A stretch of 64,000 bases of DNA from a phage, in assembly GCA_012343875.1 (NCBI GenBank), contig GCA_012343875.1_3924.1; one strand, 5' to 3'. The notes beneath the pieces were generated by a model, which was not told the DNA's origin, did no database searches, and saw only the letters and a list, made by a program, of their open reading frames with translations. Of the stretch, positions 1,552 through 40,289 are shown piece by piece (the first letter of the stretch is position 1; every line of letters starts with the position of its first letter). The translations under genes were made by a program, and so were the position numbers.

Positions 1552-1809
1552 TCAGATTAAATTGCCAGTTAATGATAAGTGCATTTTATAACCTTTTTTA
1601 GTGAAAACATTCACTTTACCGAGTGATTTTACACCTTTAAAAAGGTTGTTTGAACTGCGTTTTAGGGTTAACTGTTTATCAACCTTTACGCCCCATCTTA
1701 CAGCAGATTGTTTTCCGTTGTCAACCACTTTTCCGCATAACTTTTTAGCCATAATGCGAGCGTCATCACGAGTTTTTGCAGGAATTACAACGTTTTTGAT
1801 AATAGCCAT
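1552..1809 (-). CDS. hypothetical small basic protein (85 aa)
   Basis: ORF preceded by type A cassette. Confidence 0.5.
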   Translation of the reverse strand: MAIIKNVVIPAKTRDDARIMAKKLCGKVVDNGKQSAVRWGVKVDKQLTLKRSSNNLFKGVKSLGKVNVFTKKGYKMHLSLTGNLI

Positions 1810-1897
1810 TTTTGAATCTCCAATTTAGGATTTAGTGGTAAAGCTCTTTATCTGGGGCTTACTTTATCGAACTATAAGCCCCCTGTAAAGTACTTTA
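1810..1897 (-). promoter_or_regulatory. conserved intercistronic cassette type A
   Basis: Copy of the 396-480 element. Confidence 0.6.
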
Positions 1898-2278
1898 TCA
1901 GTTAATTTTGAATATTGTCACATAACCATCACTACCAATTATTTGAGACGCTCCAGCTTTCTCCACTGAATAGCCCATATTTTCAAGATGGTAAACAGCA
2001 TCATCATAACCATATGCGCCACCTTGATAACGTCTCTTATTGCAGCTTATCAGGTTTTTACCACGTCCTGCCAGTGCATTTAGTACAGCTTTTTCACTCG
2101 ATAGTGTACCATCTAGCATGGTTGCAGTGTAGTGGTTGATTTTGTTCCCGTTGATATCATACTTGAAATTGAACGAGTGAACAACGATAACGTTACCTTT
2201 GAAATTCTCATCAAGTGCCTTCTCCAGTGCGTTGCGAAAGTTGTCTTTATTGATGAATTTAGGTGCACGATATGCCAT
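1898..2278 (-). CDS. hypothetical early protein (126 aa)
   Basis: First gene downstream of the sigma70-like promoter at 2345-2373; preceded by type B cassette. Confidence 0.5.
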   Translation of the reverse strand: MAYRAPKFINKDNFRNALEKALDENFKGNVIVVHSFNFKYDINGNKINHYTATMLDGTLSSEKAVLNALAGRGKNLISCNKRRYQGGAYGYDDAVYHLENMGYSVEKAGASQIIGSDGYVTIFKIN

Positions 2279-2340
2279 TTTAGAGTCTCCTAGTTTAAGG
2301 TTAGTTATTTAGTGGGGAAGGTTATTCCCTCTCCGTTGAT
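2279..2340 (-). promoter_or_regulatory. conserved cassette type B (5' leader copy)
   Basis: GGAGAGGGAATAACCTTCCCCACTAAAT..AGGAGACTCTAAAATG on the minus strand. Confidence 0.5.
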
Positions 2341-2344
2341 GCAA

Positions 2345-2373
2345 ATATTAGATAACCCTAGCCAGAGAGTCAA
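2345..2373 (-). promoter_or_regulatory. sigma70-like promoter for the leftward small-gene array
   Basis: Minus strand reads TTGACT - 17 nt - TAATAT (-35 at 2368-2373, -10 at 2345-2350). Confidence 0.55.
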
Positions 2374-2494
2374 GAAAAATTTTAAAAATATTTTTGCAAA
2401 AACTGTAATGAAACGTGCGCGCACAACTACTATAAAACATAAAACTGGTCAAGAATTATTTTTGAATCCGCTACAAATTTTTCTCTTGACTTTT

Positions 2495-2535
2495 GGGGAG
2501 AGGGGGAGTAAGAGGGGGAGAGGGGCTGGGCTGGC
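2495..2535 (+). repeat. polypurine tract with four or more G-runs (G-quadruplex-capable)
   Basis: GGGGAGAGGGGGAGTAAGAGGGGGAGAGGGGCTGGGCTGG, highly atypical in this AT-rich genome. Confidence 0.6.
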
Positions 2536-2550
2536 TGTCTATAAAAACCT

Positions 2551-2729
2551 ACCTGCACAATTCTAAAATGATTTTTCTTGCCCGACCTGAGCGGGGTCTG
2601 CACGTTTTGAAAATGAAAAAGCTCTTTGGAGATTACCTGCACAGTTTGAAAATGAATTTTCTCTTTGGAGTTCAAAATTTTCTCTACAGATTTCTCTATA
2701 GAAATATACCTGCACAATCCTGAAATGAA
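2551..2729 (+). repeat. four dispersed direct repeats of a 22-bp motif ACCTGCACA.TT.TGAAAATGA
   Basis: Copies begin at 2551, 2596, 2635 and 2708, with irregular spacing, in a 520-bp non-coding gap. Confidence 0.6.
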
Positions 2730-2801
2730 AAAGCCCTCCTTACCTGAAAAATTTACCAGATAAGAAAGGCTCAGTCTATTATGAATATTCTACAGAGTTT
2801 C

Positions 2802-3587
2802 TTAGTTCTTTGCGTCTAAGAAGGTAACTTCTGGTGAAGAGAAGATTGCCTCGATATCCTCATCAGTTCTTGCATAGATATAAGCTTCTGCATCACTACC
2901 AAATGTTACAGCAATTCTGTGATTGCTCTTCGACAGGTGGGTAACTAGAGCGTTACTTAGAGACATCTTTTCAACCGGAGGGTTACTTTGATGTATCTTA
3001 CCTTTTCTTCGTCTGAAGAGGGTAACTGCATTATCCGTGAACACTGCTACACCTGCAAAGTATTCTGGCTCACAGTAGTTTTTCCAACCTGAGAGTAACT
3101 TGTGGTACATATCACCTTCATAGACATACAGATAGACATCTACACTCTTCATCACCTGATTGGTGATAACTGTGACAGCTTGAGGGTCAAGTCCACCGAT
3201 ACCTGCACCAATCATAGGTAGACCGACTTTCTTCAACTGATTCACTTCACAGTATCTGTTAAGTTGCTTCAAAGATGACTCTAAAGCACTGTATCGGGCA
3301 TCTTTACCAGTCTTAAGCTGAGTGTAAAGGTTAGCTATACGACCTTGTTTTAAGCGTGCTACAGAGAAATTACCTAGTAAATTCTCACAGGGTTTGTGAC
3401 CTATACCACCTGCATAGAGATAAACTTCTGTATCGGTCTCATATGCTTTTGGGTAAAGTTTAGAAATCTTGTCAGCGATACCTGCACCCATTAAATTCAT
3501 ACAGTTGCAACCGTGACCGATGATGTCAAACTTACCTTTATCAAATGCGGCAAAGATATCACCATTGATTATTTTTACAATACCCAT
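2802..3587 (-). CDS. macro-domain protein (TARG1/DarG-type ADP-ribose binding or hydrolase domain) with C-terminal domain of unknown function
   Basis: N-terminal GDIF..(H)GCNCMNLMGAGIA matches the TARG1/DarG-type macro signature (H-C-x5-MGAGIA) as I recall it. Confidence 0.6.
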   Translation of the reverse strand: MGIVKIINGDIFAAFDKGKFDIIGHGCNCMNLMGAGIADKISKLYPKAYETDTEVYLYAGGIGHKPCENLLGNFSVARLKQGRIANLYTQLKTGKDARYSALESSLKQLNRYCEVNQLKKVGLPMIGAGIGGLDPQAVTVITNQVMKSVDVYLYVYEGDMYHKLLSGWKNYCEPEYFAGVAVFTDNAVTLFRRRKGKIHQSNPPVEKMSLSNALVTHLSKSNHRIAVTFGSDAEAYIYARTDEDIEAIFSSPEVTFLDAKN

Positions 3588-3788
3588 TTAACATCTCTCC
3601 CAAGATTCTTTGTCTTCTGAAGGTTTTACACGTTGTCCTTCGTGGTCTACCCAGATACATCCACAACCTTCACAGATTACTGGCATTGCATAGCCAGCTT
3701 TAAAGTCATCTTCAGTGATAAGACCTTTTAAGTCACCTGTATCACGTCCAAACATTTCTATAGAGCAGTCTTTGCAGAAGTCAGCCAT
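3588..3788 (-). CDS. small Cys-rich protein (66 aa), possible zinc ribbon
   Basis: CKDC .. CEGCGC cysteine pairs. Confidence 0.4.
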   Translation of the reverse strand: MADFCKDCSIEMFGRDTGDLKGLITEDDFKAGYAMPVICEGCGCIWVDHEGQRVKPSEDKESWERC

Positions 3789-12860: not shown

Positions 12861-14625
12861 TATTATTTCGAATATCGCCAAGAGTTGTGTAGCCGAACTG
12901 CTCAGAGTCGCTAAAGACTAAACGTAAAGCACAAGCTGGATGCTCAAGTGCATCTGCAAAACTCTGGAATCCATAGCCATCTACAGCTTTCAGATTCTCA
13001 CCATCCCACATAGGGGCTACACCACCAAAAGCAGACTTCTTAATACCACTATCTGTTTTAGGGTCTTTTGCAAGCATAATCTCTTTACCACCAATGCTTG
13101 CAAGAGTTGCTTTGACAGCAAATGCAAAGGTGTCACGAGTCATGTACTGGTAAGTGTAAGAACCTACACCAAACACTACGTTAGAGCTTGCAAAACCCAT
13201 TTCATACAAACGCTTCAGGATTTCGTTTGCACGTTCCAGCGTGATAGAGTCACCATAGATAAGGCCAATGTGCTCATCCAGTACCTTAAACCCTTTAGAG
13301 TTGATAGTTCCTCCAAAGATGTTATACAAGGTCTTAATGGCCCCATCAATCTCTGCTACAGGACGTGTTACAACGTTTGCAGAACCAACCATATAGGCGT
13401 TTTTCAACATCACTGTATCAGCAACTTCAAAGTCTTCTCTGTCAACAACCATTTCGTAGCCTTCTGACAGTAGCCATCCAGCAATACCATAGTTGATGTT
13501 TTCAAGCTTCATGTTCAGAACAGCATTCAACATTGTGTCACTGGCTTCCAGCTTGATTAGGTGCTCGTAATAAGCCTTCTTAGCACATTCTAAGTGGATT
13601 GCTTTATAACCTGTGACAATATGTACAGGGTCTCCAGAGTCAGGACGAATTACCAGTTTGCCATCACGTTCCATAATTTCTTTACGAAGTGCTGGTAAGA
13701 TTTCTGACACAGTTCTCCAGAAGTTATAAGTGTCTGAAACAACACTTGCAATACCAGTTGGGTAAGTTTCTGTTAAGAAACGACGGAAGGTTTGTAACTC
13801 ACCTTTAAAGCGTCTTTCTTCTTCAATCAACTCATTACCACCTTCCCAAGCAATGTTTGCACACATTACAGAGTGCTCAGTGGCTGGTACAGAACTACCA
13901 ATATCAGAAATTGGGTAAGACTGTCCATAGATGCGTTTAGCCGTGTATACAGCAGGGAAACTATCAGTTCCTTTAAAGCTGGTTAAGTGACCTACAGCAT
14001 TAAATGCGTCATCGGTAAAGCCGGACATACCACGCATAGCAAAGTCATGGCACTGATAAGGTAAATGTAAGTCGTTGTCGCAAGTAAGGTCAGCCCACTT
14101 CTTACAGATGCGTTTATAATGCAATGCAATAGTTGCAATGGTACAAGCCTTCCAAATCTCAGCAGAGAAAGCATCTTCCAGATACCCTGCTACCCAATGG
14201 AAACCTGAAACAGTGTTCTGGAAGACAATCATTGGGACACGCATAGGGACAACTGTACCTTCTTCTACAGCGTATACTTCAACTGGTAGATAACCTAAGT
14301 CATGAAGTGCTTCCCAATGCTCTCGACCGATAGCATCTTTACCCAGAACACCATTCATGACTTCTAAGATTTCATCAATGGCTTCTTTTTTATCACGTTC
14401 AAAGAAAGTGGCGTTCCAGTGGTCTATCAAGTAATCTTTAACGAAACGTTGAATACCAAAAGCTACTACACCATCAATTACTAAGGGGCTGTTAAACCAT
14501 TTGTCACTACGTGGTGTCAGGTTGAACATCAAGTACTCTGTTGCACTAGGGTACTGGTAAACATGACCAGATTTGTAAGCATCTGCGTTTAAACCTGCTG
14601 GTACTGCATAAAGTGATTTAGTCAT
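12844..14625 (-). CDS. nicotinamide phosphoribosyltransferase family protein (NadV/NAMPT-like; candidate nicotinamide ADP-ribose transferase)
   Basis: N-terminal DAYKSGHVYQYP .. YLMFNLTPRS matches the NAMPT-family signature as I recall it; 593 aa is longer than a typical NadV. Confidence 0.8.
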   Translation of the reverse strand: MTKSLYAVPAGLNADAYKSGHVYQYPSATEYLMFNLTPRSDKWFNSPLVIDGVVAFGIQRFVKDYLIDHWNATFFERDKKEAIDEILEVMNGVLGKDAIGREHWEALHDLGYLPVEVYAVEEGTVVPMRVPMIVFQNTVSGFHWVAGYLEDAFSAEIWKACTIATIALHYKRICKKWADLTCDNDLHLPYQCHDFAMRGMSGFTDDAFNAVGHLTSFKGTDSFPAVYTAKRIYGQSYPISDIGSSVPATEHSVMCANIAWEGGNELIEEERRFKGELQTFRRFLTETYPTGIASVVSDTYNFWRTVSEILPALRKEIMERDGKLVIRPDSGDPVHIVTGYKAIHLECAKKAYYEHLIKLEASDTMLNAVLNMKLENINYGIAGWLLSEGYEMVVDREDFEVADTVMLKNAYMVGSANVVTRPVAEIDGAIKTLYNIFGGTINSKGFKVLDEHIGLIYGDSITLERANEILKRLYEMGFASSNVVFGVGSYTYQYMTRDTFAFAVKATLASIGGKEIMLAKDPKTDSGIKKSAFGGVAPMWDGENLKAVDGYGFQSFADALEHPACALRLVFSDSEQFGYTTLGDIRNNIDKQL

Positions 14626-14670
14626 CTTTTAATCTCTCTCAAAATGGGGCTTTTAAGCCCCTATAAACTT

Positions 14671-15567
14671 TCAATCAAGGTTTGCTACAGTAACTTGACT
14701 GTAATGTGTTAAGCCACGGTCTTTAGCTTCGCCTAAAGAGTTTGTAGTGTAGATGTGGTCAATGCCATTGTCAAGAAGGTTTTCAACATCTTTAGAGAAG
14801 ATACCATGTGTTACATAGAGTTCCACACGTTTTGCACCTGCTTCACGAAGATGTTTCGCTGCTTCTATGAAGGTTCGCCCACCATCACAGATATCATCCA
14901 GAATCATGACGGTTTTATCTGTCAAATCAACATCATCAAGGATTCGCATACCAGTAATTTCACCAGTCTTAAGGTTACGCACTTTAGACATTGTGATGTA
15001 TGGTTTATCCACCTCTTTAGCAGTCTCTGCAATCTTCTTAGCAGCACCTGCATCTGGGGCTACTAAGTAATCAATCAGTGGGTCATTTGCATAGTGGACT
15101 GCAATTTCCTTTTGAGGAATACTCTGGAAGCAGTTAAACAGGTTATCTGGTACATAGCTGTGAGGGTCAACTGCACAGACTGCGCCAAACCCCATTGCAT
15201 TAATTTGTTTAGCAAAAACCTTTAAAGCTGCTGCGTCACCTTTAAACATGTGACGGTCATAACGTGCATTTGGTAAGTAGTAAAAGATGACAGTCTTTAA
15301 AGCATAATCATGAGGAATTAAATCATCAATTGCTTCTTTAGCAAGTGCCACAGCAAACAAAGTGTCCTTATCATAACCTTTTACAATCATAATCACATTG
15401 TTGATGGATGATGCTGCATAAGCAGTAAAATCAACAAACTCTGGCGAAAAGTGTCCACCAATCTCACCAGAAGGGAATTGGACGATGTTAAACTCTTCTT
15501 CATGAGTCCCTTTAGTTGGTGAATGAACTGTAACACGGATAGATGTTTTCATAGTTTTCTCTCTCAA
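14671..15567 (-). CDS. ribose-phosphate pyrophosphokinase family protein (Prs-like; candidate ADP-ribose pyrophosphokinase)
   Basis: PRPP-binding loop ILDDICDGGRT, VAPDAGA and YVTHGIF motifs typical of the Prs family. Confidence 0.8.
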   Translation of the reverse strand: MREKTMKTSIRVTVHSPTKGTHEEEFNIVQFPSGEIGGHFSPEFVDFTAYAASSINNVIMIVKGYDKDTLFAVALAKEAIDDLIPHDYALKTVIFYYLPNARYDRHMFKGDAAALKVFAKQINAMGFGAVCAVDPHSYVPDNLFNCFQSIPQKEIAVHYANDPLIDYLVAPDAGAAKKIAETAKEVDKPYITMSKVRNLKTGEITGMRILDDVDLTDKTVMILDDICDGGRTFIEAAKHLREAGAKRVELYVTHGIFSKDVENLLDNGIDHIYTTNSLGEAKDRGLTHYSQVTVANLD

Positions 15568-33018: not shown

Positions 33019-33441
33019 TTATTTCTCTCTCAGTTGGTTAAGTTTCTTTCTAGAACATTTTAAGTTTTCAGATGAAGAAAAGTCAAGTGTCTTTTCAGAA
33101 CGTGGATAATAGTGCCTATCCCAAGAAGTTTCAACATCGTTAATCAGTGACGCTAGATTACACAGGTCTGTACCACTTTGCAACCTCTTTTTAAGAGAAT
33201 CTAGTAAAGCAACTGTGTCTTTAGCTTTACGTCTCGCTGTAGCAACATCTTTCATATGCTCAAATACAGAGCATTTTAAGTCATCTTCATAGTTTTCAGA
33301 CAACTCTATTTCATGTTGTATATCAACCATTCTCCTGTGATGGTGAGCATATTCCCGTTGAGCAGCAATGTCAAGTTCTTCCAACTTCTGCAAAGCTCTA
33401 ACAAAGTCAGCTATGTCTGGGTGAACAAACATTTTCTGCAT
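33019..33441 (-). CDS. hypothetical protein (140 aa), first gene of the leftward block
   Basis: ORF adjacent to the divergent control region. Confidence 0.4.
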   Translation of the reverse strand: MQKMFVHPDIADFVRALQKLEELDIAAQREYAHHHRRMVDIQHEIELSENYEDDLKCSVFEHMKDVATARRKAKDTVALLDSLKKRLQSGTDLCNLASLINDVETSWDRHYYPRSEKTLDFSSSENLKCSRKKLNQLREK

Positions 33442-33699
33442 GTAAGCCTCTTTTAAGTAACTATTAAGTTTTAATCTTTTATCTTAACGTATTCTATACG
33501 TTATACTTTAAAGCTTTTTAAAAGCTATTAAATAATCTTTTAAGAGTTTTAAAGTATCTGTATAGTTAAACTGTTAAGTAACCTTTTAAGTAAAAAACCC
33601 ACTTCGCAAAGATTAACACCTTGTCAAGTGCATTGTCAACTTGCTTTTTATAATTTTTTGCAGTAATGTATGAGGTTAATGGTTTTAGAGGGAGTAAAA
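33442..33699. promoter_or_regulatory. AT-rich divergent control region with repeated CTTTTAAG motifs
   Basis: Separates the leftward block from the rightward polymerase block; CTTTTAAG at three sites, near-palindrome AGCTTTTTAAAAGCT, direct repeat TTGTCAA x2. Confidence 0.5.
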
Positions 33700-39784: not shown

Positions 39785-39997
39785 ATGGCTCTTAAAAAGT
39801 TACATCCCAGAAGCGGTTATGGTAAGATAGTCGATGATACAGACGGCTTTACAGTATTTACAGTCATCTGTCAAGATGATTCACAGATTGAAAAGGCTCT
39901 TGATGATTATCTTAACGATGAACGTGAAAAGGTTAGGGCTACAAACATAGATTCATTAATTGACACTTCACGTAAACGGAAGAAGAAAGATGAATGA
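39785..39997 (+). CDS. hypothetical small protein (70 aa)
   Basis: Co-directional ORF. Confidence 0.35.
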   Translation: MALKKLHPRSGYGKIVDDTDGFTVFTVICQDDSQIEKALDDYLNDEREKVRATNIDSLIDTSRKRKKKDE

Positions 39998-40289
39998 AGT
40001 TTTTGACCCTTATGCTCCACAAGATGATTGGGAGGCTGACAGAGAGGCTGAAATGGAGAGTTATGTTTGTCCAATGGATGTAGACGAAATGAGAGATTTC
40101 GTTGCACACCGTTTTAAGAAAGAGATTAAATCCAGAGGTCTTTCTCAAGAGCAAGTTGCTAAAATTTGTGGTATCTCTCAGGCTCGCGTATCCAACATAA
40201 TCCACCTCACTGGTAATGTCTCCCTTGAGTATATGTTGGAAGTATGTGAAAAATTTGGTGTTAATTTCAATTTAAGGCTGGCAGATTAA
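39990..40289 (+). CDS. helix-turn-helix DNA-binding protein, candidate transcription regulator
   Basis: LSQEQVAKICGISQARVSNI resembles an HTH recognition unit; start taken at ATG 39990. Confidence 0.4.
   Translation: MNEVFDPYAPQDDWEADREAEMESYVCPMDVDEMRDFVAHRFKKEIKSRGLSQEQVAKICGISQARVSNIIHLTGNVSLEYMLEVCEKFGVNFNLRLAD

Follow-up and report, generated by a model that had tools for sequence, protein, structure and literature searches.

An array of four direct repeats, unique in the genome and conserved in four genera of Ounavirinae, is most likely an iteron-like set of protein-binding sites in a Felix O1-type phage

The window analysed here is a 64-kb stretch (64,000 nt) of phage DNA, assigned by sequence to the genus Felixounavirus, subfamily Ounavirinae; its region 1800-3600 shows 93-95% identity to Felix O1-type phages (HY02, wV8, Felix O1). 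The genes at the locus of interest lie on the minus strand, so 'sense' is used below for the reverse complement of the letters shown. Between the open reading frames (ORFs) 1898-2278(-) and 2802-3587(-) there is a 523-bp non-coding gap, 2279-2801, which contains four copies of a short, degenerate repeat. Judged from their sequence, these repeats are most likely a cis-acting, iteron-like array of bipartite protein-binding sites, all in the same orientation.

The copies start at 2551 (ACCTGCACAATTCTAAAATGA), 2596 (GTCTGCACGTTTTGAAAATGA), 2635 (ACCTGCACAGTTTGAAAATGA) and 2708 (ACCTGCACAATCCTGAAATGA), exactly where an initial annotation of the window had placed them, and the irregular start-to-start spacing of 45, 39 and 73 bp which it reported was confirmed. 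All four have the same orientation and the array spans ~180 bp (2551-2728). The gap, estimated in that annotation at ~520 bp, is non-coding as claimed and measures 523 bp. The motif length of 22 bp had to be corrected, each copy being 21 nt, and the proposed fixed-length consensus ACCTGCACA.TT.TGAAAATGA finds no match even at 3 mismatches because the copies differ through 1-nt insertions or deletions (indels) in the middle of the motif. Over 34 nt the repeats are mutually 62-85% alike. An A/T-tract follows each repeat, and the conserved unit extends beyond 21 nt to ~37-39 nt, reading GACTCCAAAGRG-[CTTTTT or AAAAWT]-CATTTTCAAnnYGTGCAGGT on the sense strand. Each site, again on the sense strand, consists of box B (TTTTTCATTTTCA), 2-3 free bases and box A (TGTGCAGGT).

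By pattern matching and comparison, copy 1 was delimited to 2551-2576(-), made up of the 21-nt motif at 2551-2571 and a T5 tract (sense GCAAGAAAAATCATTTTAGAATTGTGCAGGT), copy 2 to 2596-2621(-), copy 3 to 2635-2660(-) and copy 4 to 2708-2733(-). Copy 1 is orthologous to unit u2 of the Erwinia phages, and BLAST aligns Erwinia M7 1501-1593 with window 2554-2656. Copy 2 has the most divergent box A (GTCTGCACG) and is altered in wV8 by a 2-bp deletion. The T-tract of copy 4 doubles as the U-tail of the terminator lying upstream. Comparison with Erwinia also points to an apparent remnant of a fifth unit at 2538-2550(-), sense AGGTTTTT^ATAGA; set against Erwinia unit u1 (AGGTTTTTCATTTTGAATTTGTGCATAGA), it appears to be a stump from which a 16-bp core is missing.

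The genome-wide motif search suggested in the initial annotation recovered the four gap sites but none elsewhere. The pattern TGCAC[AG]N3-6AAATGA has no other match on either strand of the window, and in the complete 86-kb HY02 genome it has no match beyond the array's four. Across 200 sequences of 64 kb simulated by a Markov model, it matched 0.155 times on average and at most 2 times. Given four matches in the gap and none elsewhere, against 0.155 per 64 kb in the simulations, the repeat cluster is real, non-random and unique in the genome.

Conservation was examined over 27 distinct loci recovered by searching with the motif and with the macro-domain protein encoded at 2802-3587, whose gene anchors the array by synteny in every genus examined. 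The phages with the array have Escherichia, Salmonella, Shigella, Citrobacter and Erwinia as hosts. In Felixounavirus, Suspvirus and Mooglevirus the order and spacing of the array are kept (73-77 / 39-41 / 45 bp), a few genomes having a single copy altered by a point change or a small deletion. Erwinia M7 and Ea21-4 (Kolesnikvirus) have four tandem 37-39-bp units of the form ...GGTCTGGCAAGA-[GTTTTT/AAAAAT]-CATTTTCAATTTGTGCATAG. Individual copies are orthologous between genera, the unit with AAAAAT in place of TTTTT aligning between Erwinia and enteric phages. When IMG/VR was scanned for the exact pattern, arrays turned up in Ounavirinae only; outside this subfamily, IMG/VR viruses and bacterial genome contigs gave only single matches at chance level.

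The macro-domain proteins are only 64-70% identical across genera. Relative to the window, the 26-nt cores of a Moogle-type phage are 85.6% identical, compared with 70% for the macro-domain coding sequence (CDS) and 57% for the inter-unit spacers; the corresponding values for Erwinia M7 are 65%, 48% and 29%. Mean per-site variability in the 27 genomes is 0.081 in the array versus 0.105 in the CDS. The motif cores are under stronger constraint at the nucleotide level than the flanking gene. The positions that do vary are the 2-3 nt between the boxes and the spacers. Because what varies is the sequence separating the motif halves, together with the spacers, the pattern is the signature of a putative bipartite recognition site formed by box B and box A.

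The repeats are non-coding and without structured RNA. Every reading frame has stops in some genus, and a protein-coding gene with internal repeats was rejected. Variability by codon phase is 0.092/0.068/0.082 in the array and 0.077/0.062/0.175 in the neighbouring CDS, so that the third-position excess is found in the CDS only. A PHROGs search gave no match for the ORFs over the array, and public records place hypothetical proteins there on conflicting strands and frames. The initial annotation was therefore right to regard the overlapping ORFs as artefacts, and the small ORFs annotated over the gap in several public records are likely spurious. A structured or known RNA family was rejected likewise: Rfam gave no match near gathering score for the gap, and the fold does not exceed that of shuffled sequences (z = -0.48 sense, +2.08 antisense), the only robust helix of the sense strand being the terminator.

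The array lies within an ordered set of other elements. On the minus strand the order is macro-domain gene, terminator, copies 4-3-2-1, fifth-unit stump, C-rich tract, 55-bp block, promoter, hairpin in the 5' untranslated region (5'-UTR) and downstream gene. The macro-domain gene (2802-3587(-); Pfam Macro, phrog_335; annotated "phosphatase") ends with its stop codon at 2802-2804(-). The predicted intrinsic terminator at 2731-2772(-), annotated also in wV8 and XTG1, has a 17-pair stem with G-U pairs. It ends the rIIA-to-macro-domain operon and works in the sense direction only because the stem relies on G-U pairs. On the other side of the array, inspection and alignment revealed a G-run tract, GGGGAGAGGGGGAGTAAGAGGGGGAGAGGGGCTGGGCTGG, at 2495-2534(+). 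This tract carries a canonical G-quadruplex (G4) pattern on the plus strand, in a phage with a GC content of 38%, and its sense RNA is C-rich and G-poor (rut-like). Most Felixouna-, Susp- and Mooglevirus relatives retain it; Erwinia M7 has a shorter version, and in the VpaE1-type unrelated sequence stands in its place. The record of phage Andreotti (MN850610) starts within the G-run tract of the gap (1-289) and is ~3-4 kb shorter than its relatives, which suggests an assembly break at a G-rich or repeat region and not a true end.

Next to the G-run tract, alignment showed a conserved 55-bp block, 2440-2494, with two back-to-back TTGAC boxes. Its identity to the window is 82-95% for the compared enteric relatives (Moogle-type phages, SUSP2, L033 and VpaE1) and 36% in Erwinia M7. 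TTGACC at 2452-2447 faces the minus strand and TTGACT at 2486-2491 the plus strand, the boxes being 34 bp apart. The latter is accompanied by a weak -10 sequence, TAAGAG at 2509-2514, and points at the array. Both boxes have an A/T-rich upstream tract, and their -10 sequences, TAGTTG and TAAGAG, lack the usual final T; the block looks like a divergent promoter pair. Further on, a promoter scan and alignment identified a sigma-70 early promoter, TTGACT-17-TAATAT, at 2345-2373(-), which is predicted to drive gene 1898-2278 and has an A/T-rich upstream tract conserved across genera. The 5'-UTR hairpin at 2314-2334(-), found by inspection and alignment, corresponds to 'DR_6' of wV8, and its stem is maintained by a different sequence in each genus (GGAGAGGGAATAACCTTCCCC, GGGGTAAGCAAGCCCC, GGGCAAACAAGCCC). 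The downstream gene, 1898-2278(-), encodes 126 aa (phrog_4495, function unassigned) and heads the small-gene cluster which runs to the right genome end; Mooglevirus and Suspvirus have a different gene in its place. Terminator, array, G/C-rich tract, 55-bp block and A/T-rich promoter region together form a ~430-bp non-coding module conserved in the Felixouna-, Susp- and Mooglevirus genomes compared.

From these features we infer that the repeats are bound by protein. It is rather probable that they act at the level of DNA, while initiation of replication as their function is possible but doubtful. A sequence-specific protein would bind the four sites cooperatively on duplex DNA, the nucleoprotein complex so formed would mark a replication origin and the adjoining A/T-rich, promoter-bearing DNA would be the site of opening, as in lambda ori and plasmid oriV. 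An origin role is favoured because the array is single-copy and forms part of the conserved ~430-bp module, with poorly stable A/T-rich DNA, promoters and a G/C-rich tract close by. The A/T-rich segment 2340-2490, which a 40-bp G/C tract separates from the array, is among the 1-3% least stable windows, though the least stable site is 33448-33600. Iteron origins such as RK2 oriV likewise combine iterons, an A/T-rich region and a GC-rich region. The 'operator/iteron sites' of the initial annotation fit best of its suggestions in so far as the copies share one orientation, occur nowhere else in the genome and have a bipartite core better conserved than the flanking gene; an operator's dyad symmetry is missing. 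By inspection, the motif has no such symmetry except for a short GAAAAT..ATTTTC in copies 1 and 3 only.

Several observations weigh against an origin. No Rep, O or DnaA-like domain was found by Pfam and PHROGs in 17 flanking or candidate proteins, though many small proteins are uncharacterised, and the HY02 annotation names only DNA polymerase, primase/helicase and ligase, and no initiator. The replication genes are 15-30 kb from the array. Iterons are classically spaced ~22 bp apart compared with the wider 37-45 bp here. The window's array contains no DnaA boxes, which were rejected as an identity for the repeats: no copy is within 1 mismatch of TTWTNCACA and counts over the whole window are below shuffle expectation. 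The enteric copies (ACCTGCACA) agree with 6/9 positions of this box and the Erwinia copies, CTATGCACA or TTATGCACG, with 8/9 (Erwinia M7 1461-1600, L007). Intrinsic curvature arising from the A/T tracts was also rejected, the predicted curvature being ordinary (17th percentile in a wedge model). Lastly, antisense promoters point at the array, strong in Erwinia M7 and weak in the window, and this leaves room for a role at the RNA level.

There is also a competing locus. At 33441-33670 the DNA polymerase operon and the operon with primase/helicase diverge from a gap which has the least stable duplex in the window together with repeats of its own and a 27-nt imperfect palindrome. As an origin candidate it is as good as the array or better. 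Its repeats, CTTTTAAG/CTGTTAAG, resemble the CTTGTTAA-type repeats which fill the terminal repeat of phage Pr103Blw. This gap may be a candidate origin, or the likeness may reflect a shared binding or promoter motif.

The array might act on transcription instead of replication. A phage or host protein on the four sites would then serve as a roadblock or insulator which backs the terminator and keeps the rIIA-to-macro operon apart from the terminal early genes, or would activate or silence from upstream the adjacent back-to-back promoters (P1, P2, antisense). Such a role is unlikely. The array is located exactly between the terminator and the promoter block, at a transcription-unit boundary, and the 55-bp block, in which two TTGAC boxes diverge, matches the repeats in conservation. 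The phage also encodes an Xre/Cro-type helix-turn-helix (HTH) protein at 39960-40289(+) (Pfam HTH_3, E = 5e-10; 'transcriptional regulator' in HY02), the only clear sequence-specific DNA-binding protein among the 17 scanned; nothing ties it to the array. However, the repeats overlap no promoter, being 60-380 bp from the nearest -35 boxes, and do not have the dyad symmetry of HTH operators. A dyad-symmetric HTH operator was rejected on these two grounds, no site coming nearer than 60 bp to a -35 box. The motif is absent from all of the many similar early promoters, in cassettes such as DR_7/DR_9 of wV8, which makes a regulator acting on early transcription in general improbable. The 'repeated promoter-like elements' of the initial annotation found no support. 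A sigma-70 promoter family was rejected: copy 4 alone scores 9/12, by way of the terminator T-run, the other copies fail by inspection, and the motif is upstream of no other gene and nowhere else in the genome.

Somewhat less likely again is an element acting as RNA, in which the array would be transcribed, most plausibly antisense, and the repeats would be single-stranded sites for protein binding or processing in the manner of a sponge RNA. In Erwinia M7 a 10/12 sigma-70 promoter, TTGACG-18-TATACT, is aimed at the array from ~140 bp upstream, and in the window and aligned Moogle-, Susp- and Felixounavirus relatives a TTGACT -35 box with its conserved A/T-rich upstream tract has the same orientation. 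For the antisense RNA, unusually little structure is predicted (z = +2.08), as would suit single-strand sites, the G-U-dependent terminator hairpin would let antisense transcripts pass, and HY02 gp045 is annotated as 'RNA-binding protein'. Yet the antisense -10 of the window, TAAGAG, is poor, without the invariant final T, and was missed by the promoter scan, and the antisense promoters of Erwinia and enteric phages are at non-homologous positions. No Rfam family, covarying structure or terminator defining an RNA end was found, and the strong terminator just upstream cuts off sense transcripts.

The location of the array in the genome bears on a further possibility. In Pr103Blw (MW481326) it lies at ~81.6 kb in a genome of 88.4 kb, which leaves 6.8 kb (7.7%) to the right end. 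Because only 13 small genes, all transcribed toward the right end, separate it from the terminal repeat, the array is the inner boundary of the terminal small-gene cluster. This terminal 7.7% carries small genes of host-takeover type with their own promoters. It is conceivable, but improbable, that the array is a checkpoint in DNA entry, like the injection stop of T5, which pauses or anchors the incoming genome after its terminal 7.7%. In T5 the first step of DNA transfer covers 7.9% and halts at a non-coding region which is rich in repeats and has DnaA boxes (bioRxiv 10.1101/866236). The Erwinia copies come close to such boxes, but the enteric copies do not, none in the window being within 1 mismatch. 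The T5 signal is inside a 10-kb terminal repeat and has inverted repeats and palindromes, unlike the array, and the likeness in percentage may be a coincidence. To our knowledge, two-step entry has not been described for Felix O1-like phages.

That the repeats are functionless leftovers from tandem duplication of the terminator tail is very improbable. The T-tract of copy 4 is indeed common to repeat and terminator, the Erwinia form is a plain tandem array and a decayed fifth unit is present. Against this, the cores are better conserved than the adjacent CDS, across genera with proteins only 64-70% identical, the spacers diverge freely (57% identity) and four genera all retain at least 4 copies. 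Some records annotate here a small gene for a protein with internal repeats (wV8 gp13, sense; Pr103Blw_00144, Mijalis118 and Panisse_00107, antisense). Such a gene is hardly credible even though ORFs 2430-2717(-), 2563-2715(-) and 2493-2723(+) traverse the repeats and copies 1-3 are spaced in multiples of three (45, 39 bp), for other genera have spacings of 41 bp or 37-39 bp, and no frame is universally open.

Other identities were considered and rejected. A CRISPR array had been discounted in the initial annotation, and this was borne out by the degenerate 21-nt repeats, their 45/39/73-bp spacing, the conservation of the 18-52-bp spacers across genera and the absence of cas from the scanned neighbours and the HY02 annotation. 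Known sites for IHF, CRP, Fur, Fis, LexA, MarA/SoxS, OmpR, sigma-54 and EcoKI were compared by eye using consensus sequences and none fitted; the best likeness, 13/15 to an OmpR C1 half-site, is lost in the Erwinia copies and can be taken as a lead only. An insertion hot spot was prompted by two-piece BLAST joins, but the gaps of heid and radambza are 520-523 bp, and the joins most likely reflect the repeated promoter cassettes before the small genes. Near-identical cassettes of ~90 bp stand before successive small genes at window ~393-485, ~1458-1552 and ~1807-1909. Their counterparts are wV8 DR_7/DR_9 and the 57-bp repeat of Felix O1, and they are probably promoter-plus-leader modules.

A genome terminus or terminal repeat came under consideration through the size of the direct terminal repeats (DTRs), ~580-608 bp and thus near that of the 523-bp gap, and through the start of the Andreotti record within the gap. 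Terminal repeats of 608 bp in UAB_Phi87, by Bal31 and run-off sequencing (PMC4837284), and of 581 bp in Pr103Blw, by PhageTerm (PMC8303462), have been reported. The 581-bp DTR of Pr103Blw maps to HY02 14621-15202, ~6.3 kb from the array and outside the window, and this identity was rejected. This DTR, which matches nothing in the window, is situated past the small-gene cluster in a convergent gap, and the short repeat in it is another one, of the CTTGTTAA type. In the UAB_Phi87 record (JN225449) positions 1-542 are identical to 87062-87603, in the tRNA region, which is not where the Pr103Blw DTR maps; either the 542-bp identity comes from an overlap in the assembly or the ends are placed differently in the two reports.

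Classic tools for typing Salmonella, Felix O1-type phages also serve in biocontrol and therapy. A search of the published literature for iterons, origins and transcription start sites of Ounavirinae found no description of the array, nor any report mapping the replication origin, the early regulatory circuitry or the mode of DNA entry of a Felix O1-type phage. The Felix O1 genome paper gives other repeats and no origin (PMC3185647). Occurring once per genome, within ~180 bp, and with 21-nt cores which outconserve the adjacent gene, the array is a precise experimental target. If it is an origin, it would be the first replication origin located in the Felix O1 group, perhaps with an unrecognised initiator. 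If it is a DNA-entry checkpoint, two-step genome delivery would extend beyond the T5 group to a myovirus with short terminal repeats.

Comparison with known systems places the array closest to iteron origins, namely lambda ori with its four O-bound repeats and the plasmid oriV of RK2, R6K, P1 and pSC101. Like these it has four direct repeats of ~20 bp in the same orientation, is unique in its genome, has an A/T-tract with each repeat, is near A/T-rich DNA, promoters and a G/C-rich tract, and forms a composite non-coding module of a few hundred bp. Unlike these it does not resemble known iterons in sequence, is not accompanied by an initiator gene among the scanned neighbours or in the annotated HY02 genome and has centre-to-centre distances of 37-75 bp instead of ~22 bp; it is not in or beside the replication genes, and its enteric copies are without DnaA boxes. 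The CRISPR likeness is limited to short direct repeats with non-identical intervening sequence, whereas the array is degenerate and irregular, has spacers orthologous across genera and is found in a virulent phage. The injection-stop signal (iss) of T5 shares with the array a repeat-rich non-coding region ~8% of the genome from one physical end, which bounds terminal small early genes, and, in the Erwinia versions only, DnaA-box-like cores. The T5 iss, however, is within a 10-kb terminal repeat and contains inverted repeats, palindromes and paired consensus DnaA boxes, whereas the repeats of the array are direct, the terminal repeat is ~0.6 kb and 6.3 kb away, and the enteric cores are poor DnaA boxes. 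The wV8 repeats DR_1 to DR_9 and the Felix O1 repeats of at least 24 bp (PMC3185647) are also short and in the same early region, but these are dispersed promoter and 5'-UTR cassettes before many small genes whereas the array is local and unique. In wV8 the array is not annotated as a repeat and a 54-aa CDS, '13', is drawn over it instead.

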